The notes under the pieces were generated by a model, which saw only the letters and a program-made list of their open reading frames with translations, ran no database searches and was not told the origin of the DNA. A stretch of 54,931 nucleotides of DNA from assembly GCA_964563775.1 (NCBI GenBank), contig CAZLYH010000003.1:1-54931 (forward strand), given 5' to 3'. Source of the DNA: an uncultured Syntrophomonadaceae bacterium. GTDB taxonomy: Bacteria; Bacillota; Syntrophomonadia; Syntrophomonadales; Syntrophomonadaceae. Made by a program: the position numbers and the translations under genes. Positions 38,657 through 50,805 of this stretch are shown piece by piece. The number at the start of each line of letters is the position of its first letter. Position 1 is the first letter of the stretch.

Positions 38657-39088
38657 TTACCGCTGCAGACAATCAGGACAATAAGCAAACAGTTTTAATT
38701 CATGGTCTACGATCTGGTAGCCCTTTTTCTCCAGATAATCCTCCAGGGGATGTAATAAATCTTCATCTACCTCAACGATCTGCCCGCATGACAGGCAAAT
38801 AATATGGTGGTGATGGTGAGAGTTCCCATCAGCCAATTCGTAACGGTACTTGCCCTCATCAAACATACTCTTATAGAGAATGTTCATACCGGCTAACCTC
38901 TCCAGAGTGCGGTAAACAGTAGCCATGCCCAGGTTGGGAACCTTTTTGCGAGCTTCCAGTAATACCTCTTCGGCGGTGAAATGTTTGCCGGGGTTGGCCT
39001 GCATGACATCAAGCACCGCCCCCCTTTGGGTAGTTAGGCGGTAGTTCTGCTCCTCCAGCCTCTGGTTGATCATTCGGCTCCTGACCAT
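38657..39088 (-). CDS. fur: Fur-family metalloregulator
   Basis: HHHHHIICLSCG and CPDC metal sites, winged helix RLTTQRGAVLDVM. I prefer the ATG at 39088 (AGGAGA 6 nt upstream), because the longer track ORF (to 39148) would include the promoter and the Fur box. Confidence 0.88.
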   Translation of the reverse strand: MVRSRMINQRLEEQNYRLTTQRGAVLDVMQANPGKHFTAEEVLLEARKKVPNLGMATVYRTLERLAGMNILYKSMFDEGKYRYELADGNSHHHHHIICLSCGQIVEVDEDLLHPLEDYLEKKGYQIVDHELKLFAYCPDCLQR

Positions 39089-39110
39089 TTTCATTCTCCT
39101 GATAATGATT

Positions 39111-39129
39111 ATTGTTATCAGTATATTAC
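39111..39129. promoter_or_regulatory. Fur box overlapping the fur promoter/TSS (autoregulation)
   Basis: GATAATGATTATTGTTATC matches the Fur-box consensus at 16 of 19 positions, immediately downstream of the -10 hexamer. Confidence 0.75.
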
Positions 39130-39158
39130 AGTCCGCAGCCGCTTTCAAGGGAAAACAA
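39130..39158 (-). promoter_or_regulatory. sigma-A-like promoter, TTGAAA-N17-TATACT, for fur-feoB
   Basis: Minus-strand TTGAAA (39158-39153) and TATACT (39135-39130). Confidence 0.55.
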
Positions 39159-39159
39159 G

Positions 39160-39189
39160 GGGTCTAAAAGACCCCTTGCGCTGCACCAT
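39160..39189 (-). terminator. intrinsic terminator after gdhA
   Basis: Minus strand reads CAAGGGGTCT-TT-AGACCCCTTG followed by TTTTC. Confidence 0.75.
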
Positions 39190-39225
39190 TGATGTCGTTC
39201 CTCACCTGGCTCGGTAAACAAGTGT

Positions 39226-40593
<1,368 letters not shown>

Positions 40594-40667
40594 CTACGGT
40601 GTTCATCAAAATTATAGTTTGGTCAGGAGAGGGTGTAAACCCATTTATATTGCGGTATACAGTATAT

Positions 40668-40692
40668 CTGAATGGGGACACACTCTCCCCCC
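40668..40692. repeat. copy 1 of a ~23-25-nt direct repeat/hairpin in the gdhA leader
   Basis: Plus strand CTGAATGGGGACACACTCTCCCCCC. On the mRNA strand it reads GGGGAGAGTGTGTCCCCATTCAG, a GGGGA/TCCCC stem. Confidence 0.5.
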
Positions 40693-40770
40693 GGCAGCTT
40701 TTCTCAGAAGCTCCGGAAGAACCCCATTGCGTTCAAACCGATCTGGTTGGGAAGGAATGTCCCCGGGCAT

Positions 40771-40793
40771 GTGAACGGGGTCACACCTCCCCC
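40771..40793. repeat. copy 2 of the gdhA-leader repeat
   Basis: Plus strand GTGAACGGGGTCACACCTCCCCC, collinear with copy 1 (TGAAYGGGGWCACAC(T)CTCCCCC), about 103 nt away. Confidence 0.5.
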
Positions 40794-40814
40794 TCGTGGC
40801 TTTTTCCGGGTCAA

Positions 40815-41777
40815 TCAGGCTGTGCGCAGATCCTTTATATCTGCCTTGTCACGCAATTCGTTCAGATATTTGCTGAAAATCTCCTCCTGCCGGTCGGTTT
40901 TCAGCTGGTTTATAATCTGCTGTTGCACCTGGTCAAAACTCTTCTGCACCGCCTCCTGCCGTTGTCCCACCTTTATAATGTGGTAGCCAAAGCGAGTCTT
41001 GACCGGCTCCGCGGTCATGGTACCGGGCTGCAGGGCCAGGGCCGCATCTTTAAAGGTCTGGTCGTAAGGGCTGCCGGGATTAATAAGTCCCAGGGCGCCG
41101 CCATCCTTTTTACTGGGACAATCGGAGTACGTGCGGGCCAGTTCTCCAAAGTCTGCTCCCTGCTTCAGCTGGGCGGTTAATTCATTAGCCTGTTCCGGTG
41201 AGGATACCAGGATGTGGAATACCTCTATTCCTCCCTCATCCTTAAATTCATCCGTATGAGCGTCGTAGTACTCACGGGCTTCTTTTTCATCCACGCTGAC
41301 TTCAGAAGTTACTGCCTCGCGCAGTTTGGAATATAAAATCTGGGTTTTCAGTTCCTTATGAAAAAATGCCTCGTCAATGCCGTTTTTGTCCAAAAAGGCC
41401 TGATAGGCCTGTTGATCCAGCCCGGCTTTGGCCTCCCCATCACTGACCTCAATCTTTCGGGTGGAAGCCTCCTGCCAGAGCAGTTTTTGCAGAATCATTT
41501 CCTCATAACTCTGTTCCTTGAGCTTCTTGATAACCTCCCGGTCCTTCTCCTCATCCAGAGCGGGAGCCGGCCCGGAACCATCAGCTGGTGCACTGCCCAG
41601 AACACTTTGTTCGTAGAAGGTTTTTACGATAAGGTAATGCTGGTCCAGCTCCGCCTGAGTTATAGGGTCGCCATTTACCAAGGCGATCGTTTTTGGCTTC
41701 TCTTCCTGCTGGCACCCCCAAACTAAAAAACAGGCCAACAAAAGCACCGCCAGCAGGAAACCTTTTCTTCTCCCCAT
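40815..41777 (-). CDS. parvulin-type peptidyl-prolyl isomerase, probable lipoprotein (PrsA/SurA-like)
   Basis: PpiC domain FHILVSS...DFGELARTYSDCPSKKDGGALG...GYHIIKV. Signal/lipobox-like LLLACFLVWGC. ATG at 41777 with AGGAGGG 6 nt upstream; the track ORF starts 8 codons earlier. Confidence 0.85.
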   Translation of the reverse strand: MGRRKGFLLAVLLLACFLVWGCQQEEKPKTIALVNGDPITQAELDQHYLIVKTFYEQSVLGSAPADGSGPAPALDEEKDREVIKKLKEQSYEEMILQKLLWQEASTRKIEVSDGEAKAGLDQQAYQAFLDKNGIDEAFFHKELKTQILYSKLREAVTSEVSVDEKEAREYYDAHTDEFKDEGGIEVFHILVSSPEQANELTAQLKQGADFGELARTYSDCPSKKDGGALGLINPGSPYDQTFKDAALALQPGTMTAEPVKTRFGYHIIKVGQRQEAVQKSFDQVQQQIINQLKTDRQEEIFSKYLNELRDKADIKDLRTA

Positions 41778-41798
41778 GTTTTTCCCTCCTGCCATAGA

Positions 41799-41824
41799 CA
41801 AAAGCCCGGGTTTGGAACCGGGCC
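41799..41824 (-). terminator. intrinsic terminator after icd
   Basis: Minus strand reads GCCCGG-TTCCAAAC-CCGGGC followed by TTTTG. Confidence 0.65.
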
Positions 41825-41839
41825 TGTACTGATTTAATG

Positions 41840-43111
41840 TTACATGTTCTTAATTAGTTGGTCAGCAAACTGGGAGCATTTTACCTCGGTGGCACCGTCC
41901 ATCAGGCGGGCAAAATCATAGGTTACCACTTTGCTGGCGATGGACTTTTCCATGGCGGCAATAATGAGATCAGCCGCCTCATTCCAGTTCAGATGGCGCA
42001 GCATCATTTCCCCGGATAAAATAACCGAGGAGGGATTTACCTTATCCAGACCGGCATATTTGGGCGCCGTCCCATGAGTTGCTTCAAAAATGGCATGACC
42101 GGTGACATAGTTGATGTTGGCACCGGGTGCTATACCGATTCCACCCACCTGCGCGGCCAGGGCATCAGAAATATAGTCCCCGTTAAGGTTCAGAGTAGCC
42201 ACTACATCAAACTCATCCGGGCGGGTTAAAATCTGCTGCAAGAAAATGTCGGCAATAGCATCCTTAACCAGTATTTTGCCACTGGCCAGGGCCTCATCTT
42301 GAACCCGGTCAGCCGCCTGTGCTCCCTTTTCTTCCTTGATCCGGTCATACTGTTCCCAGGTAAAGACCTTTTCCCCGAATTCCTCTTCGGCCAGCTCATA
42401 GCCCCAGTTACGAAAAGCCCCTTCGGTATACTTCATGATATTGCCTTTGTGAACCAGGGTTACGCTTTTACGTCCGTTTTCAATAGCGTAATTCATAGCC
42501 GCCCGAACCAGGCGTTGACTTCCCTCTTTGGAAACAGGCTTGATGCCAATACCGGAAGTCTGGGGGAAACGGATTTTGCTTACTCCCATTTCCTGCTGCA
42601 AAAAGTCGATTAGTTTCTTTACTTCGGGAGAATCACTGGCATATTCGATCCCGGCGTAAATATCTTCCGTATTTTCCCGGAATATAACCATGTCTACCTT
42701 TTCCGGGCGGCATACCGGGGAAGGAACCCCTTTAAAATAACGTACCGGACGTAAACAGGTATAGAGATCCAGTTCCTGCCTTAGAGCCACATTCAGAGAA
42801 CGAATCCCTCCCCCTATAGGAGTAGTGAGGGGTCCCTTGATGGCAATCGTATACTCGCGGATGGTATCCAGAGTCTCTTGCGGCAGCCATTCTCCGCATT
42901 CATTAAACGCCTTTTCCCCGGCCAATACTTCTTTCCACACTATGGATTTTTTTCCCTGATAAGCTCTGGCAACTGCAGCCTCCAGAACTCGTGAGGCCGC
43001 GGCCCAGATATCCGGCCCGGTCCCATCGCCTTCGATAAAGGGAATGACCGCGTGGTCGGGCACCTTCAATACACCGTTTTCCACAAGGATCTTCTCTCCC
43101 TGCACCAACAA
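41840..43111 (-). CDS. icd: NADP-dependent isocitrate dehydrogenase
   Basis: 423 aa. [27 protein letters not shown] and [26 protein letters not shown] motifs. Confidence 0.93.
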
Positions 43112-43127
43112 ACACCTCCATATGATT

Positions 43128-43152
43128 AACCCGGCCCGGGGAACCGGGCCTG
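43128..43152 (-). terminator. GC hairpin after the 1154-aa gene; terminator-like with a weak U-tract
   Basis: GGCCCGG-(GGAA/TTCC)-CCGGGCC. It shares the 13-nt string GGAACCGGGCCTG with the hairpin at 41804-41823. Confidence 0.45.
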
Positions 43153-43168
43153 AATGGGTCCTATTGCT

Positions 43169-46100
43169 CTACTTGCATCCCCGGGCTGATATGTCTGCCA
43201 GGAAAAGCCGTTGGGCGGCATCCGTTTCCACCGACGGCAGAAATATAGGGGCGGGATCGGGTAACACCAGGTTTGCTCGCTCCTCCCGGTTAACAGGCTG
43301 AGTATATGATTCGGGAAATTGTAAAACCTGTTTCTGAGCAGAATCATGCACCAGCAGTCGATGTAGAATTCCGGAGGGGGTAGTAAGACTTCCTGGTATA
43401 ACCGAATCCAGTAGCTTCCACTCACCCGCGGCAGTAAGGTAATGACCATACCTTTCTCCGGGGGCCGGCATGGGAATTACCAGATCAGCCAGTTCAGCAG
43501 TGGCATGCATACAGGGCGCAGCTACTACCAGCAAATCAACCTGGCGCAGTACTTTCCCGTCCAGCAACCCGGCTCCGATCGGATCTTCACCAAGAATAAA
43601 TACCGCTCGGCATTGACCCGCATGTATGCATTGTACCAGTTCCGCAGTGCTATTGACAAAACCTGCTTTGGTAATACCCGGTCGGTTACCCCCCGGGCCA
43701 ATTATCAGCAAACCACCAGCACCCTTCAGGTGCCCGGTCAAGGCGGCCAGATTGGCCAAAACTTGCACGGCCGCTGTGCTGACCATATATCCATCTACAA
43801 CCATAATGGCATGTTTGGCTCCAACCATTTCCTCCGCAATACGCTCCTGTATATGATCAAAATCCCTGCCGGCAAAGGAAATATCCGATGCAGCCAAACC
43901 TTTTTCCCCATTACAAGCATCTCGAGCAGCCGGAGAATGTTTTAGCACTGCGGCCAGGACTCCCTCCAGCCAGTCGGTGGCATTGCCGGCAGGTTGAACC
44001 CGCATCCAGGCGCAGTCTTCCAGCACGTTGTCATCGGGGCTGATGACCACCAGCCGGGCCCCCTTTTCCACCGCCATCCGGGTGCGCATCAGAGCTACCT
44101 GGCTAAGATCAAAGTCTCCTACCAGCATGATCAAGTCTGCCTGATATAAATCCTCCCAGGAAGCGGTAGACTGGCTGTGACCGATAACCGGCTCCAGACC
44201 CAGCGCAGCATCCCGGGAGAAACTACCCAGCCAGGTCGTTTTTGAAAACCCGGCCGCCAGATTCGCAAGCTGCTGCGCTTCTTCCCCGGAACAGGATGGG
44301 GTAAGGTAAAAGGCGGTTCCCGCCTCCCCGTGTTGCCGGGTGATAGCCTCCCTGCATTCCTGCAGGAAGCGTCCCGCCTCTGCGAAGGAAATTTCACCAA
44401 ATTTGCTTTCCCGGCGCAGCAAAGGTTTTTCCAATCTATCCGTTGGCGTTTTCCATCCGAAGCGGCCCCGCGAACAGAGCAGTCCGTCACTGGCAGGCAT
44501 CACCCTGACCGGCCGGGAACCAAACTTCTCCACCCGGGAGTCACAGGCGATTCCGCAACCGGTGCAGAAGCCGGCTGCTCCGCTCAGTTGCAGCGGAACC
44601 GGTTTGACACCCGGAATTCGTTCACTAAGAGCTCCGGTAGGACATAAGGCCACGCATTCTCCGCAGCTTATGCAACCTGAATCTTTCCAGGCCACGCCCA
44701 TTTCCGGTGTAATGACAGTTGCAAACCCGCGGTCCACCAGGCCCAGAGCACTGACCCCCGCGATTTCCTCACAGACCCTTACACACAGACCGCAGAGAAT
44801 ACATTTTCCCATATCCCGCACCATAAAGGGATGGCTGTCGTCCATCCCCGCCGGGTGCTTGCCTCCCCGCAGACGTTCCGGTTGAACCCCATAACGCCGG
44901 GCATAAGCCAGGAGTTTGCATTCAAAATAGTCCAGGCAGCCGCATTCCAGACAACGCCCCGCCTCGGCCAGGGCCTTTTCCGTCGGTAGAATGTGGCTGA
45001 CCGGTGCAAAGTTGTGCCGGCGCACCTCGGGATCAGCATGTTCCTGCTGGCAGCGGGGTTGCTGGGCAAAACTGTCAAACCAGGATTGCTGAGGTTCCTG
45101 CCGGGACAGATAGGAGGAAGAATGATCCCTAACAGTTTCTCCCTGCAAATAAGCCTGGATGGACTCTGCGGCTTTCTTGCCCCAGGCCACCGCCTCAATG
45201 GCAATCCCCGGACCGCTAACCACATCTCCGCCGGCGAAAACACCCGCCATGCTGGTGGTACAAGTTTGCTCATCGGCATCAATGGTATCCCAGCGACTGA
45301 GAGCCAAATCCTCCAGGCCGGCTGTATTAACCTCCTGGCCAATGGCGGCAATCACCGTATCTACGGAAATAAGCTCTTCTTCTCCAGTAGGAACCGGCCG
45401 CCGTCGACCGGAAGCATCAGGCTCGCCCAGCTTCATCTTGTCCACTTTAACAGCGGCTGCTTTCCCGTTATTGCTGACAATCTCCTGGGGAGCTGCCAGG
45501 AAGTGAAACTGCACGCCCTCTTCCATAGCCTCTTCGATCTCGCTATCCTGCGCCGGCATCTCAGCACGGGTGCGCCGGTACAAAACCATTACCTGCCCGG
45601 CCCCCAGGCGCAATGCGGTACGGGCCGCGTCCATGGCCGTGTTTCCTCCACCAATAACGGCCACCCTGTCACCCAAAGCCACCGGACACTGCTGGGCCAC
45701 CTCACGCAGAAAGTCTATTCCTCCCAGGACCCCTTCTGCTTCCTCCCCGGGACAACCAATGCGGGAGGATTGCCAGGCACCTGTTGCCAGAAAGACGGCA
45801 TCGTGTTCCTGACGTAGAACATCTAAATGAATATCCCGGCCCAGCCGTACATTATTTATAAAGGAGACTCCCAGCGCTTTGATTAGTTGAATCTCCCTTT
45901 CAAGGATCTCTTTGGGAAGTCGATATTCCGGTATACCATAGCGCAGCATTCCCCCTGCTTGCGGCATGGCATCGAATACAGTTACCTGATTACCCGCCCG
46001 GGCCAGAAAGAAGGCCGCCGTCAAGCCAGCCGGTCCCGCCCCCACCACAGCTACCTTCTTGCCGCTGGCCGGCTGAACGGGCGGCTGGTAAGGCATGGCA

Positions 46101-46633
46101 GCAGTCAAGTCCTGCATGCCCACGAAAGCCTTGAGGTTGGCTATGGCAATCGGTTCGTCCACCCTGCCTCGGCGGCAGGCATCTTCACAGGGATGAGGAC
46201 ATACCAGTCCTATGCTTGCCGGCAGGGGATAACTCTCTTTCAACAACTGTACCGCTTCTCTATAATGACCGTTGGCGATAAGTCCCACATAACCCTGGCA
46301 ATCGGTCCCGGCAGGACAAGCCAGGCTGCAAGGGGGACGACAGTCGCCACAATGGTCGGAAAGGAGCAGCTCCAGGGTTAGCTTGCGGGAGCTTTTAACC
46401 CGGTCTGACTCCGAATAGATTACCATACCATCCCGGGCCTCGGTAGCGCAGGCGCGCACCAGGTTGGAAATGCCCTCGACTTCCACCACACAGATGCCAC
46501 AGGCGGCATAGGTTTTCAGGCGCGGCTCGTGGCAAAGGGCAGGAATATCAATGTCATTGGCAATGGCAATATCGAGAATGGTTTGCCCTGCCCGTCCCAC
46601 TGCCTCTCGTCCATCTATGGTCAGCCGTATCAT
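43169..46633 (-). CDS. giant fused redox subunit: NuoG/HydA-type 2Fe-2S N-terminus, GltD/NfnB-like FAD/NAD(P)H domain, 4Fe-4S ferredoxin domains, and a C-terminal molybdopterin-oxidoreductase-like domain
   Basis: 1154 aa. MIRLTIDGREA...CHEPRLKTYAACGICVVEV (2Fe-2S). DHCGDCRPPCSLACP...VAVVGAGPAGLTAA...GGGNTAMDAART (GltD-like). CILCGLCVRVCEE and CISCGECVALCPTGAL (4Fe-4S). FCTGCGIACDSRV...LLCSRGRFGW (Mo-bisPGD-type cluster domain). Confidence 0.8.
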   Translation of the reverse strand: MIRLTIDGREAVGRAGQTILDIAIANDIDIPALCHEPRLKTYAACGICVVEVEGISNLVRACATEARDGMVIYSESDRVKSSRKLTLELLLSDHCGDCRPPCSLACPAGTDCQGYVGLIANGHYREAVQLLKESYPLPASIGLVCPHPCEDACRRGRVDEPIAIANLKAFVGMQDLTAAMPYQPPVQPASGKKVAVVGAGPAGLTAAFFLARAGNQVTVFDAMPQAGGMLRYGIPEYRLPKEILEREIQLIKALGVSFINNVRLGRDIHLDVLRQEHDAVFLATGAWQSSRIGCPGEEAEGVLGGIDFLREVAQQCPVALGDRVAVIGGGNTAMDAARTALRLGAGQVMVLYRRTRAEMPAQDSEIEEAMEEGVQFHFLAAPQEIVSNNGKAAAVKVDKMKLGEPDASGRRRPVPTGEEELISVDTVIAAIGQEVNTAGLEDLALSRWDTIDADEQTCTTSMAGVFAGGDVVSGPGIAIEAVAWGKKAAESIQAYLQGETVRDHSSSYLSRQEPQQSWFDSFAQQPRCQQEHADPEVRRHNFAPVSHILPTEKALAEAGRCLECGCLDYFECKLLAYARRYGVQPERLRGGKHPAGMDDSHPFMVRDMGKCILCGLCVRVCEEIAGVSALGLVDRGFATVITPEMGVAWKDSGCISCGECVALCPTGALSERIPGVKPVPLQLSGAAGFCTGCGIACDSRVEKFGSRPVRVMPASDGLLCSRGRFGWKTPTDRLEKPLLRRESKFGEISFAEAGRFLQECREAITRQHGEAGTAFYLTPSCSGEEAQQLANLAAGFSKTTWLGSFSRDAALGLEPVIGHSQSTASWEDLYQADLIMLVGDFDLSQVALMRTRMAVEKGARLVVISPDDNVLEDCAWMRVQPAGNATDWLEGVLAAVLKHSPAARDACNGEKGLAASDISFAGRDFDHIQERIAEEMVGAKHAIMVVDGYMVSTAAVQVLANLAALTGHLKGAGGLLIIGPGGNRPGITKAGFVNSTAELVQCIHAGQCRAVFILGEDPIGAGLLDGKVLRQVDLLVVAAPCMHATAELADLVIPMPAPGERYGHYLTAAGEWKLLDSVIPGSLTTPSGILHRLLVHDSAQKQVLQFPESYTQPVNREERANLVLPDPAPIFLPSVETDAAQRLFLADISARGCK

Positions 46634-46651
46634 ATTTCACCCTCCTCTCCC

Positions 46652-48415
46652 TTACTCCACCCTTACCGCGGCGAATTTTTCCGGGCATACCTCCAGGCAG
46701 GTTCCACACTTGATGCATTTATCCTGCTCTATAATATAGGGCTGTTTCTTTTCTCCGCTAATGCACTCCACCGGGCATTTGCGGGCGCAGATGCCGCATC
46801 CCCGGCAGCGTTCCGGATCGATAATATATTGAATCAGGCTCTTGCACTGCCCGGCCGGGCAGCGTTTCTCCTTAATATGCGCCTCATATTCGTCACGGAA
46901 ATACTCGATAGTAGTGAGGACCGGGTTGGGGGCACTTTGCCCCAGGCCGCACAGTGAGGCCGCCTTGACCTCCCCGGCCAGTTCCTCCAATAATTCTATA
47001 TCTCCCTCTTGTCCTTCCCCCGCACATATCCTTTCCAGGACTTCCAGCATGCGGGTGGTGCCGATACGGCATTGCACACACTTGCCGCAGGATTCCTTGC
47101 GGGTGAAATCCAGGAAGAAACGAGCCATATCCACCATACAGGTACTATCATCCACCACAATCATACCTCCGGAACCCATAATGGCTCCGGTGTCCTGTAT
47201 GGACGCATAATCAACCGGCGTATCCAGAAGGGAAGCCGGAATACATCCCCCGGAAGGCCCCCCCAGTTGCCCCGCCTTGAAGCGGCGGTCTCCTTTAATA
47301 CCCCCGCCTATAGCAAAAATAATCTGCCGTAGGCTGATCCCCATGGGGACCTCCACCAGTCCCCCCCGTTTGATTTTACCCGCCAGGGCAAAAACCTTGG
47401 TGCCCTTGCTATCTTCAGTGCCCAGGGCGGCAAAGGCGGATCCGCCGTTAGCAAGTATCCAGGGTATATTGGCCAGTGTTTCTACATTATTAATGCTGGT
47501 AGGGTTATTGCGGTAACCCCGCTGGGAAGGAAAGGGCGGTTTTAGTCTGGGCATTCCCCTCTCCCCTTCCAGGGAGGCAATTAGAGCAGTCTCCTCACCA
47601 CAGACAAACGCACCGGCCCCCTGTTTAATGGAAATATCAAAAGAAAATTCACTGCCCGACAGGCCCTCACCCAGAAAACCCCTGGCCCGGGCCTGATTGA
47701 TGGCAATGCCCAGTCGCTCTATGGCCAGAGGGTACTCGGCCCGGCAATAAATAATCCCCCGTCCGGCCCCGATAGCATAACCGGCAATAAGCATTCCTTC
47801 CAGAACTGAATGGGGATCGCTTTCCAGCAGGCTGCGATCCATGAAAGCGCCCGGATCCCCTTCGTCTGCATTGCAGACCACATATTGGGGTGCAGCCGCT
47901 TCCTGGCGGGTAGCATTCCATTTAAACCAGGTGGGAAAACCAGCTCCACCCCGCCCTCGCAGACCGGATATTTTAATTTCTTCTATAACCTGTTCCGGAG
48001 TGAAGGAGGTTACAACCCGTTGCCAAGCCTGATAGCCACCTGCTTGACAATAATCATCAATCGATTCCGGATCGATATGTCCACAATTGCGTAAAGCGAT
48101 CCGCAATTGAGCTTTTAAAAAGCCAGCCGGTTCTGCACTGCTGGCAACCAGGCGATCCCCCCGGGATCCTCTTCCCTGCAAGTGGGCTTGCAGGATTTCT
48201 CCCACTTCCTCCGGTTTTACATTGCCATACGTAAAGATTCGCCCGTCATCCTCGATGACGTCCAGGAGCGGCTCATGATGGCACATGCCAATACAGCCGG
48301 TACGCTTCAGCTCCAGTTCGGGATTTAATCCGGCCACTTCTTGCTCCAGTATCTCCCAAAGTTCCAGTGCTCCAGCGGCTATGCCACAGCTGCCCATGCC
48401 CACCTGTACTATCAT
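46652..48415 (-). CDS. NuoF/HydB-like NAD(P)H-binding FMN Fe-S flavoprotein subunit
   Basis: 587 aa. N-terminal thioredoxin-like 2Fe-2S module, GRGGAGFPTWFKW FMN site, ESCGKCVQCRIG N3 cluster, and two C-terminal 4Fe-4S motifs (CRGCGICARKCP, CIKCGTCLEVCP). Confidence 0.88.
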   Translation of the reverse strand: MIVQVGMGSCGIAAGALELWEILEQEVAGLNPELELKRTGCIGMCHHEPLLDVIEDDGRIFTYGNVKPEEVGEILQAHLQGRGSRGDRLVASSAEPAGFLKAQLRIALRNCGHIDPESIDDYCQAGGYQAWQRVVTSFTPEQVIEEIKISGLRGRGGAGFPTWFKWNATRQEAAAPQYVVCNADEGDPGAFMDRSLLESDPHSVLEGMLIAGYAIGAGRGIIYCRAEYPLAIERLGIAINQARARGFLGEGLSGSEFSFDISIKQGAGAFVCGEETALIASLEGERGMPRLKPPFPSQRGYRNNPTSINNVETLANIPWILANGGSAFAALGTEDSKGTKVFALAGKIKRGGLVEVPMGISLRQIIFAIGGGIKGDRRFKAGQLGGPSGGCIPASLLDTPVDYASIQDTGAIMGSGGMIVVDDSTCMVDMARFFLDFTRKESCGKCVQCRIGTTRMLEVLERICAGEGQEGDIELLEELAGEVKAASLCGLGQSAPNPVLTTIEYFRDEYEAHIKEKRCPAGQCKSLIQYIIDPERCRGCGICARKCPVECISGEKKQPYIIEQDKCIKCGTCLEVCPEKFAAVRVE

Positions 48416-48960
48416 TTTTCTTCCGCCCCCTCCCGCAATTGCCCTTCCCTTTTATAAATGGAGCGGATAATCGACCGGGCCTTATCCGGGGTTAATGGTC
48501 CATAGGCCTGTCCATTGATCATCATCACCGGAGCCAGGCTGCAGCAACCCAGGCAGGCCGCCGTATCCAGAGTAAAGAGACGGTCAGCGGTAGTCTGGCC
48601 CGCTTCGATATTCAACTCGTCACCGAGTGCGGTTTTGATACGTTCCGCCCCATTTACATGACAGGCAGTACCCTCACAGAGGAGAATCAGGTATTTCCCC
48701 ACCGGCGTAAAGCGAAACTGGGTATAAAAAGTAGCCACACCAAAGACCCGGGCTGGCTTTACCCCCATGCGCCTGGCAATATGACTTAATGCCAACCGGG
48801 GCAAATAGCCATAAACCTTCTGGGCTCCCTGTAAAACGGCAATAAGATTGCCGCTATCCTCTTGATTGTTTTGCAGCAGTTCCTCTATTAGATCCAGATC
48901 AACTTCCCCCTCCGGAAAACTGGCCTGGATAAACTTATCTTTGCCGCAGCCGCATTCCAT
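48412..48960 (-). CDS. NuoE/HydC-like 2Fe-2S subunit
   Basis: CEGTACHVNG...CLGCCSLAPVMMING motifs. ATG at 48960 preferred. The track ORF begins at an upstream TTG (48987). Its stop overlaps the nuoF-like start. Confidence 0.85.
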   Translation of the reverse strand: MECGCGKDKFIQASFPEGEVDLDLIEELLQNNQEDSGNLIAVLQGAQKVYGYLPRLALSHIARRMGVKPARVFGVATFYTQFRFTPVGKYLILLCEGTACHVNGAERIKTALGDELNIEAGQTTADRLFTLDTAACLGCCSLAPVMMINGQAYGPLTPDKARSIIRSIYKREGQLREGAEEK

Positions 48961-49294
48961 ATATCTAAAACCCCCTTCCCACAACAACCATCCCTGCCAT
49001 TCAACCCCTGACCTGGAAAAGAACCGTTCCCTTTCCCGCGGGGTTTATCCGCGGTTACATCAACATCTTACCGGAACCACCCCCTTTGCGAAAGGGTGTG
49101 GCAGAAAAATATATTGTATTCCTTAAATGAGCAACATCAGAGAATCAGAAAGAATGGAGACGGGGGAAAAAGATGGACGCAGATGAGGGTTTTTACAAGG
49201 TTAATGGGAACGCTGGTCATAAAGACCAGCGCAGGGTGCAGGTTTTTCAGCCCAGCGAGGAAAAGCAACAGTTTTGAAGGGAAACCGCTGCCAA

Positions 49295-49759
49295 TTAAAG
49301 AGTTTTCACCCGGGCGATCATTTCAATTTCGCAGGCTGCGTTCAAAGGCAGGCTGGTTACCCCCACCGCCACCCGGGTATGCCGCCCCCGTTCACCGAAA
49401 AGCTCTTCCAAAAGTAAAGAGGCACCGTTTAAAACCTGGGGTTGCTGGTAGAAATCCGCACTGCTCTGAATATAGCCGGTGATTTTAATTATCTGCTCCA
49501 AATCCTCCCAACTGGCCAGCCTGCTTTTCAAGGCAGCCAGACAATTAATTATTGCCAGGCGGGCGGCCTGCTGCCCTTCTTCCATTCCCAGATCCTTACC
49601 CAACTTACCAGTCACCGCGAGTTTTCCGTCCCGCATGGGAAGTTGTCCGGAGACATATACATCTGGTCCGCTCTGCAACACCGGTACATATGCAGCCTGG
49701 GGTGAGGGTACCTCGGGAAGTACAATCCCCAGCACTGCCAATCTTTCTTCAACCGTCAC
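49295..49759 (-). CDS. RidA/YjgF-family protein
   Basis: 154 aa. VYVSGQLP...RVAVGVTSLPLNAACEIEM is typical of the family. Confidence 0.8.
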   Translation of the reverse strand: MTVEERLAVLGIVLPEVPSPQAAYVPVLQSGPDVYVSGQLPMRDGKLAVTGKLGKDLGMEEGQQAARLAIINCLAALKSRLASWEDLEQIIKITGYIQSSADFYQQPQVLNGASLLLEELFGERGRHTRVAVGVTSLPLNAACEIEMIARVKTL

Positions 49760-49776
49760 CTTAAACCACCCTTTCC

Positions 49777-50805
49777 CTAACGAATAAAGCCCTGCACTAC
49801 TGCCACGATAAACAGGGCATAAAATACCCCTCCCAACATAAGGATGGGGGCACTGATATGTTTGCGGGTACGCAGTTCAAAGAATATGACTCCCGCGGAC
49901 AGCAAAGCAATACCGGCAGAAAGTAAAGCCCCGGGATTCAATTGCCAATCAGTCAGGAAAATACCGATAGCTGGAATAAGGGAGCTTTGGAAGACCATGG
50001 CCCCGGTAATGTTCCCCAGGGCCAGGGTATCCTTTTCCCGGGAAATCCAAATTACGCTGTTAAACTTCTCCGGCAATTCGGTGGCAATCGGGGTAATTAT
50101 AATCGCCAGGACAAAAGCGGGAACAGCATACATCAGAGCCACCGCCTGTACTGAGCTGACAAAGAGATCGGCACCGAAAATAATCAGGACCAGTGCTGTC
50201 ACCACCTGGGCCAGGATGACCAGCAGGTGCGGACTTTGGTCAGGAGGGGTGGGGAAAGGAAAGCGGGCAAAATAACACTGGGGAAGTGCATTTTCGGCTT
50301 CCACGTCCCGCTCCTCGTTCACCATGATAAATACATAAATAAAATAGGAAACCACCATTAAAGTTGCCAGGATCAATTGCAGGCTCCGCCAGGCGGGGGG
50401 AAACAGACCGCAGACAATCGCTACCATATACACCACCATAAAAAAGCCCAGATCACGGGACATAGTGGAGTAATCAGCAACTACCTTCGTACCACTGCTT
50501 CTCCGGCCGCGAAAACCAACTACAGCCACCCCGGTTACAAACATCGCCAGGGTGGCCAGCATCAGCGGAGCACCGAGGATAGCGCCGATACCAATGGCGT
50601 GTCCTTCCCTGCCCTGCCCGAAGATGATAGCAATAATAGGAATAATGGTTTCCGGCAGCGCCGTTCCCACGGCCGCCAGAACACTGCCTACCGCCCCTTC
50701 GGAAAGGTTAAGCTTACATCCCAGCCATTCAATACCGTTTACAAAGACCTCGGCGCCAACCAGGATGATACCCAGGCTGATAACCAGCAAACCAATCTCG
50801 TACAA
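49777..50805 (-). CDS. sodium/calcium exchanger (CaCA) family membrane protein
   Basis: 342 aa. Two alpha-repeat regions (GSVLAAVGTALPETI and LGNITGAMVFQSSL) in a ~10-TM protein. Confidence 0.8.
   Translation of the reverse strand: MYEIGLLVISLGIILVGAEVFVNGIEWLGCKLNLSEGAVGSVLAAVGTALPETIIPIIAIIFGQGREGHAIGIGAILGAPLMLATLAMFVTGVAVVGFRGRRSSGTKVVADYSTMSRDLGFFMVVYMVAIVCGLFPPAWRSLQLILATLMVVSYFIYVFIMVNEERDVEAENALPQCYFARFPFPTPPDQSPHLLVILAQVVTALVLIIFGADLFVSSVQAVALMYAVPAFVLAIIITPIATELPEKFNSVIWISREKDTLALGNITGAMVFQSSLIPAIGIFLTDWQLNPGALLSAGIALLSAGVIFFELRTRKHISAPILMLGGVFYALFIVAVVQGFIR

Follow-up and report, generated by a model that had tools for sequence, protein, structure and literature searches.

The window analysed here is a 54,931-nucleotide stretch (contig CAZLYH010000003.1, assembly GCA_964563775.1) from the genome of an uncultured Syntrophomonadaceae bacterium, a 2.03-Mb metagenome-assembled genome (MAG) of 127 contigs that is 76% complete and Syntrophomonadaceae-like. 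It contains three co-directional open reading frames (ORFs) on the minus strand, at the positions given by the original prediction, which had been made from the sequence alone and had read them as a NuoE-like subunit, a long NuoF/HydB-like subunit and a 1154-aa fusion protein. The ORFs and a Pfam map confirm this reading, and the domain and family matches at the locus, whose E-values lie between 1e-18 and 0 over long ORFs, are not due to chance. Our analysis makes it very probable that the three genes encode a complete electron-bifurcating transhydrogenase of the StnABC/NfnABC type. The genes are, in the order of transcription:

48412..48987, minus strand: NuoE-like [2Fe-2S] subunit (StnA = NfnC/BfuC), 191 aa when read from a TTG
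46652..48415, minus strand: long NuoF/HydB-like flavin mononucleotide (FMN)/NAD subunit (StnB/NfnB/BfuB), 587 aa, with a 4-nt overlap with the NuoE-like gene
43169..46633, minus strand: large subunit (StnC/NfnA/BfuA type 1), 1154 aa, after an 18-nt gap behind the NuoF-like gene

The first gene also has an ATG at 48960, from which the protein would be 182 aa long; 10 nt upstream of it lies GGAAGGGGG, a site resembling a Shine-Dalgarno sequence. Because this ATG gives a better fit to the homologue alignments than the TTG, it is likely the true start. The large-subunit ORF contains no in-frame stop or TGA.

The identity of the complex was addressed by a PDB sequence search with all three proteins as queries (phmmer alignments). 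For each of them the best match is the NfnABC complex of Caldicellulosiruptor saccharolyticus (Csac; 9bov/9bp5; 1021.8, 924.3 and 218.8 bits for A, B and C), the second is StnABC of Sporomusa ovata (8oh5/8oh9; 924.8, 889.5 and 192.4 bits for C, B and A), and the third is NfnABC of Thermococcus sibiricus (9n5u). Bfu-type hydrogenases, NAD-dependent formate dehydrogenases (FDHs) and complex I rank well below these three. The matches of the NuoF-like subunit to 9bov_B and 8oh5_B are full length and outscore every hydrogenase HydB, and the large subunit is collinear with 9bov_A over residues 1-1079 and with 8oh5_C over residues 2-1067. Three organisms have so far yielded purified members of the family, for which cryo-EM structures exist; anaerobes rely on this enzyme for balancing NADH, NADPH and ferredoxin. 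Family traits at the protein level further comprise NADPH oxidation coupled to Fd and NAD+, assembly as a tetramer of heterotrimers, and a content of FAD, FMN and Zn.

The published StnC (1172 aa) comprises a hydrogenase-like [2Fe-2S] domain (1-101), a GltD domain (102-565) and, at 683-1172, an FdhF-like domain without catalytic activity (PMC10482914). For Csac NfnA the same domains are described, with an incomplete pterin site and without pterin density (PMC11829005). Since both published large subunits share them, the domain order and the molybdopterin-oxidoreductase-like (MopB-like) tail, which had been called unusual, are the defining architecture of StnC/NfnA. The claim of novelty has to be dropped as well, because the large subunit is collinear with both solved fusion proteins; the locus thus shows close orthology to a characterised complex carrying the same fusion. 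The proposed membership in the Stn class of bifurcating NAD(P)H-linked complexes, by contrast, agrees well with the sequence matches. The locus is an ordinary, complete member of an already known family, and what is new is minor context only.

The Pfam matches of the large subunit (Fer2_4 1-75, Fer4_20 93-172, Pyr_redox_2 192-483, Fer4_Nqo3 602-669 and a weak Molybdopterin match at 733-1079, 63.8 bits), together with its motifs, also uphold the GltD-like module with GGGNTA, the Fe-S regions and the short MopB-like tail named in the original prediction. The protein can be divided as follows:

46358..46633, minus strand: N-terminal HydA/NuoG-type [2Fe-2S] domain, residues 1-92 (Cys34, 45, 48 and 62; Fer2_4)
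44969..46357, minus strand: GltD/NfnL-like flavin adenine dinucleotide (FAD)/NADPH module with two [4Fe-4S] clusters, residues 93-555 (Fer4_20 and Pyr_redox_2)
44597..44968, minus strand: NuoG-type Fe-S region, residues 556-679 (C561-x2-C-x-C-x5-C572 motif and a 2x[4Fe-4S] ferredoxin-like domain; Fer4_Nqo3 602-669)
43172..44596, minus strand: degenerate FdhF/molybdopterin-oxidoreductase-like domain, residues 680-1154, retaining a CxxCxxxC...C [4Fe-4S] site (Cys690, 693, 697 and 720)

Ligand residues were examined in an alignment of 13 sequences (the window protein and 12 homologues of 47-86% identity) and mapped to 9bov and 8oh5 on the phmmer alignments to about residue 990. Invariant across the 13 sequences are 27 Cys, His94, Lys168, Arg231 and Arg238, and the same 27 Cys and His94 are kept in both solved proteins. 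In number, these cysteines are enough to ligate one [2Fe-2S] cluster plus six [4Fe-4S] clusters within the large subunit; which of them serves which cluster we infer from the aligned positions. The four N-terminal ligands (Cys34/45/48/62) are invariant in the homologue alignment and in both solved homologues, and in the NuoG-type region 12/12 Cys are invariant with the spacing of StnC and Csac NfnA. The junction motifs HxxxCxxxCxxxCP and CxxCxCxxxxxC are present. The GltD-like module carries the FAD motif GAGPAG at 198, the NADPH motif GGGNTA at 328-333, which is of the NADP(H)-type GxGxxA form, and an NADPH-related Y352-R-R-T-R that is invariant in the homologue alignment. Around the FAD-proximal [4Fe-4S] cluster, the Csac A7 ligands C108/C147/C151/K170 are matched by Cys106, Cys145, Cys149 and Lys168, which are invariant in 13/13 sequences, while Lys168, Cys112 and Arg238 correspond to StnC K170, C114 and R239, residues probed by mutagenesis. 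Mutagenesis or structures have shown that these positions matter. The family's ligand set of three Cys and one Lys (K170, strictly conserved) plus Arg is therefore complete.

One position nearby deviates. Cys95 (46349-46351) occurs only in the window protein and its 86% identical relative, where it completes a CxxCxxxCxxxCP motif as in GltD and DPD; the column holds S, V, N, I or T in the other homologues and Arg in the solved proteins.

The two smaller subunits fit the same pattern. In the NuoF-like subunit, Pfam finds Complex1_51K, NADH_4Fe-4S and a C-terminal 2x Fer4; the FMN Gly-rich loop and the NADEGDPG loop are conserved, the elements including GLRGRGGAGFPTWFKW. Its Fe-S ligands comprise the B1 motif CxxCxxC...C (C443/446/449/489), the linker residues H513/C519/C524 and a C-terminal ferredoxin domain (C537-C577) with 8/8 Cys conserved, and the thioredoxin-like domain at the N-terminus carries Cys10/41/45 and Glu48. 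All elements of a bifurcating-type B subunit (N-terminal domain, FMN loop, B1, Cys/His linker and 2x[4Fe-4S]) are thus in place. The NuoE-like subunit (Pfam 2Fe-2S_thioredx, 168.8 bits) has the C-x4-C...C-x3-C motif (Cys104/109/145/149) for a [2Fe-2S] cluster in its thioredoxin-like C-terminal domain. The N-terminal metal site of the NuoF-like subunit reads C41-x3-C45-H-H-E, with His46-His47 encoded at 48275-48280. The corresponding stretch is C-F-F-E in Csac NfnB, where Zn is bound, and C-F-Y-E in S. ovata StnB, where a [2Fe-2S] cluster was modelled.

The tail of the large subunit raises the question of whether the complex could instead be an NAD(P)+-dependent FDH with a catalytic C-terminal domain, the GltD module adding NADP specificity. 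Automatic annotation frequently labels homologues as ‘formate dehydrogenase major subunit’ or ‘molybdopterin oxidoreductase’, and the 63.8-bit Molybdopterin match points in the same direction. NAD-dependent Mo/W FDHs (FdsABG, 6TG9, and the selenocysteine (Sec)-containing FDH of this genome) also resemble the window complex in having NuoE/NuoF-like partners and an alpha subunit with an N-terminal [2Fe-2S] domain, NuoG-type clusters and a MopB fold. In sharp contrast to the window protein, however, real FDHs possess the U/C-H pair, the active-site Arg and the Molydop_binding barrel, and they lack the GltD insertion. The large subunit has neither Cys nor Sec at the FDH active-site position, which is either Ser806-Arg807 (phmmer alignment) or, in an alignment to the Sec-FDH of this genome, a 4-residue deletion across the whole Stn/NfnA family, and the Arg of LRGQNNVQG is Gly979. 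On its own the tail scores 66.9 bits for Molybdopterin and 16.4 bits, below the cut-off, for Molybdop_Fe4S4; Molydop_binding was not found in it even at E<=1, and TIGR01591 gives the large subunit 82.7 bits against a cut-off of 666. The Sec-FDH of the same genome (P0124), which served as positive control, scores 308.6 bits for Molybdopterin, 101.7 for Molydop_binding and 61 for Molybdop_Fe4S4. It lies on another contig (C63; L106 4069-8490), adjoining its own NuoEF pair: a NuoE-like and a short NuoF-like subunit (~420 aa, without N- and C-terminal Fe-S domains) precede a ~900-aa Sec-FDH alpha subunit with an in-frame TGA in ARL-U-HSV, and this module is probably an NADH-linked formate dehydrogenase. 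Even with the isolated tail (680-1154) as query, the best matches are still 9bov_A (7e-34) and 8oh5_C (4e-31). Finally, S. ovata Stn was assayed and did not oxidise formate (PMC7483475), and Csac NfnA lacks pterin density (PMC11829005). With active-site residues and Molydop_binding absent, membership among the Mo/W-bis-pyranopterin guanine dinucleotide FDHs is effectively refuted, and the earlier statements that the protein has no in-frame TGA, no catalytic Cys context and is not a catalytic FDH all hold.

As judged from these alignments, the molybdopterin-like tail is a relic without cofactor that keeps one [4Fe-4S] cluster. In homologues it mediates tetramer assembly, and the FdhF-like side branch is seen as a remnant of evolution that assembly still requires. 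Two Thermosediminibacter-type proteins (P0097 and P0118) have Arg or Lys at the FDH Arg column (LRGKNNAQG in P0097) and a longer C-terminal tail, still without the Sec/Cys-His pair.

For a complex of the StnABC/NfnABC type the reaction would, by analogy with the characterised members, be 2 NADPH + NAD+ + Fd(ox) <-> 2 NADP+ + NADH + Fd(red), where Fd is ferredoxin. In a mechanism taken over from the solved homologues, NADPH would transfer a hydride to the FAD that sits in the large subunit's GltD-like module. Electrons would then move singly via the Lys168-ligated [4Fe-4S] cluster and a further cluster chain to the N-terminal [2Fe-2S] cluster, and from there via the [4Fe-4S] cluster B1 of the NuoF-like subunit to FMN. 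Bifurcation would take place at the FMN, together with B1 and the NuoE-like [2Fe-2S] cluster (C1); NAD+ would be reduced at the FMN, and the low-potential electron would be carried by the NuoE-like domain, which is mobile, to the pair of C-terminal [4Fe-4S] clusters and finally to ferredoxin. How this is achieved is viewed differently by two research groups, one favoring kinetic gating by StnA, the other a B1-FMN-C1 ‘flavobicluster’.

The same architecture might also carry out another reaction, either as an Nso-like enzyme that reduces sulfur, polysulfide or oxygen with NADPH or as a non-bifurcating NADPH:ferredoxin or NADPH:NAD+ oxidoreductase. The homologous NsoABC of Thermococcus litoralis was, as far as the citation in PMC7483475 conveys, first described as an NADPH-dependent sulfur/oxygen oxidoreductase, and an identity of only 40-43% to characterised transhydrogenases leaves some room for such a function. 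On the other side, all members tested with physiological substrates (S. ovata, C. saccharolyticus and T. sibiricus) give coupled NADPH:NAD+/Fd activity (PMC7483475, PMC11829005, PMC9304861), the hallmarks of bifurcation (long B subunit, C-subunit [2Fe-2S] and B1 cluster) are all there, and near the operon no sulfur-metabolism genes are found. We regard a different reaction as improbable.

Of the characterised relatives, Csac NfnABC (9BOV/9BP5; Li et al. 2025, PMC11829005) has the same gene order, three subunits and, in its 1178-aa NfnA, an identical domain order; its A7 ligands (3 Cys + Lys) and its incomplete pterin site recur in the window protein, and its NfnB (584 aa) is of the same length class as the window subunit (587 aa). 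The window protein differs in the last ~75 residues, which phmmer leaves unaligned, in the extra Cys95, and in its host and neighbours, a Syntrophomonadaceae-like MAG with gdh and icd nearby. The domain layout of S. ovata StnC is likewise shared (8OH5/8OH9; Kremp 2020, PMC7483475; Kumar 2023, PMC10482914), but the S. ovata operon follows a Wood-Ljungdahl/metVF cluster, whereas the window operon lies between ridA and icd/prsA/gdh, and no acetogenesis context was seen in the surroundings examined. T. sibiricus Nfn-Bfu (9N5U/9N5V; PMC9304861, PMC12018979) belongs to the same family and catalyses the same reaction, but its ~960-aa NfnA has a truncated C-terminal domain without the Cys of one side-branch cluster, whereas the tail of the window protein is complete and of the bacterial type, including CxxCxxxC...C. 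The two-subunit NfnAB/NfnSL enzymes (4YLF, 5JCA) have a homologous GltD-like module (329 bits to 5jca_L) and the same overall reaction. They bifurcate at FAD, however, and have a Glu ligand on the proximal cluster, whereas the window complex has Lys168 at this position, NuoE/NuoF-like partners instead of NfnS, and bifurcation assigned to the FMN module. It is therefore not an NfnSL. In the 76% complete genome, no NfnSL-type or stand-alone GltD-like paralogue was found at E<=1e-30, which fits the report that Stn and Nfn are near mutually exclusive (PMC7483475).

Homologues of the large subunit are abundant: 6948 of the 8000 scored candidates match it at E<=1e-50, a set that also takes in other GltD-type fusions. 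The nearest homologue (P0005) is 86% identical and is followed by Syntrophomonas/Syntrophomonadaceae proteins at 47-55%; the nearest one with a name comes from Syntrophomonas palmitatica (1071 aa, 54% identity). The proteins of S. palmitatica and Thermosediminibacter oceani (1206 aa) are already among the Stn clusters listed in Table 1 of Kremp 2020 (PMC7483475). In a maximum-likelihood tree of B subunits, the placement that had been proposed as a check, the window subunit falls into a 99/95-supported clade of Stn-linked B subunits from the same family and order, apart from its own genome's long HydB and two short NuoF paralogues. Only this shallow clade was used; the tree does not resolve the deeper branching of the genome's own long HydB relative to distant Stn-linked B subunits. 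The order nuoE-nuoF-large subunit was found in ~60 of 80 distant loci (Bacillota, Bacteroidota, Synergistota, Planctomycetota and other phyla), a broad sample among the matches listed that is neither the closest nor unbiased, and in 9 loci of relatives. At many loci of Oscillospiraceae and Ruminococcus, and at some of other phyla (L022, L023, L027, L034, L043, L047 and others), the match to the large subunit is confined to residues 1-670, which suggests variants without the FdhF-like domain.

Given that three other NuoEF-type modules exist in the genome, one might also suspect that the locus is a paralogue of its HydABC or FDH modules that is in decay or no longer functions. Against this, all three ORFs are intact, every cofactor ligand is conserved, 8 of the 12 same-family genomes contain full-length orthologues and the operon, and identity between the B subunit and its orthologues in relatives is 67-73%. 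Decay is thus very unlikely.

Several points nevertheless weigh against a functional StnABC/NfnABC transhydrogenase or limit how far the assignment can be carried. Identity to the characterised enzymes is low; in Foldseek alignments of a predicted model (~1190 columns) the large subunit is 43% identical to 9bov_A and 40% to 8oh5_C. This AlphaFold2 model, computed for the large subunit in full from the 13-sequence alignment, is mediocre (mean predicted local distance difference test, pLDDT, 67; predicted template modelling score, pTM, 0.46), with disordered Fe-S regions and wrong inter-domain packing. Foldseek ranks 9bov_A and 8oh5_C first, but with template modelling (TM) scores of only 0.37-0.38, and only the ranking and the identity figures were used. 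Because the packing of the whole model is poor, the structural match rests on sequence and on per-domain confidence. The N-terminal site of the B subunit may hold either [2Fe-2S] or Zn; the two solved homologues differ here. The absence of NfnSL is weak evidence because the genome is 76% complete, and the in vivo direction and the link to gdh and icd are what we infer, not what was observed.

The operon is surrounded by the following features:

49295..49759, minus strand: RidA/YjgF-like gene (ridA), upstream of the operon (Pfam YjgF_endoribonc, 90.6 bits)
43131..43154, minus strand: hairpin between the large-subunit gene and icd, without a T-tract
41840..43111, minus strand: icd, NADP-dependent isocitrate dehydrogenase (NF005425, 772.9 bits against a cut-off of 490)
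39226..40563, minus strand: gdh, NADP-specific glutamate dehydrogenase (NF006929, 741.5 bits against a cut-off of 536)

The NADP-dependent icd is indeed located immediately downstream, as had been claimed. Its proposed role as NADPH link, on the other hand, does not rest on a conserved association: an icd homologue is present in 0/80 distant loci (within 8 kb) and in 0/9 loci of relatives, and icd as a conserved functional partner was rejected on these counts. Orthologues of icd, 77-83% identical, lie elsewhere in four relatives (on another contig; 176 kb away in one closed genome). The adjacency of icd is lineage-specific and outside the conserved unit.

The recurrent neighbour is the NADP-specific gdh. 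A block ridA-nuoE-nuoF-large subunit-NADP-gdh-prsA recurs in several Syntrophomonadaceae-level relatives (loci L097, L098, L100, L102 and L105). The large-subunit gene is followed by gdh and then prsA in four genomes (G007, G002, G001 and G013), three of which have ridA upstream; a fifth (G004) keeps ridA and prsA and has no gdh match. Upstream ridA was seen in L097, L098, L102 and L105. The window order is ridA-C-B-A-icd-prsA-gdh, and comparison with the block of the relatives therefore indicates that icd has moved in and that the order of gdh and prsA has been swapped. The hairpins on both sides of icd (43131-43154 and 41801-41827; sequences read directly) share a 13-nt arm, CAGGCCCGGTTCC, which fits the idea that icd moved in as a unit. 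Only the hairpin downstream of icd has a T-tract (a site at 41825-41802 is listed as terminator-like); the upstream hairpin lacks one, and co-transcription of icd with the operon is therefore possible. Promoter and terminator scans were at background level and do not settle this question. An Rfam scan of 39000-50000 yielded nothing credible, its sole match being a eukaryotic internal ribosome entry site (E=0.065).

In 4 of the 80 distant loci, the Nfn-Bfu operon has a gdh homologue (32-64% identity) no more than 8 kb away. The four belong to two Bacteroidales, one Aegiribacteria and one Oscillospiraceae:

L037, 4221-5426: distant gdh neighbour
L039, 520-1866: distant gdh neighbour
L042, 3-1145: distant gdh neighbour
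L047, 2369-3703: distant gdh neighbour

The occurrence of gdh near Nfn-Bfu operons may reflect a recurrent functional link. Features specific to this locus are minor: the relocated icd, the gdh neighbourhood, Cys95 and His46-His47 of the B subunit.

For annotation, our results imply that the locus should be named NfnABC/StnABC; wrong names are in wide use for its homologues, among them ‘formate dehydrogenase major subunit’, ‘molybdopterin oxidoreductase’ and ‘FAD-dependent oxidoreductase’. The locus changes no open question in the field.

For the host MAG, the complex is a probable route joining the NADH, ferredoxin and NADPH pools in a genome that also encodes a bifurcating HydABC, a short-NuoF hydrogenase and a selenocysteine FDH. 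The two [FeFe]-hydrogenase-type modules lie on other contigs (C29, L107 6796-10955; C35, L108 5378-8835), one with a long bifurcating-type HydB (625 aa) and one with a short 407-aa NuoF-like subunit, the latter resembling the NADH-dependent, ferredoxin-independent Hyd1ABC of Syntrophomonas wolfei. In this syntroph-like organism, with an NADPH-consuming GDH near the operon, the in vivo direction is likely to be NADPH production for biosynthesis, which would include glutamate synthesis by the nearby NADP-GDH. A more far-reaching and rather doubtful possibility is that Nfn-Bfu serves specifically the NADPH/2-oxoglutarate/glutamate node (ammonium assimilation or glutamate turnover) and perhaps shares its regulation. 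If true, this role would be more specific than general redox balancing, and the recurrent gdh neighbourhood provides a modest, testable lead on the use of NADPH.

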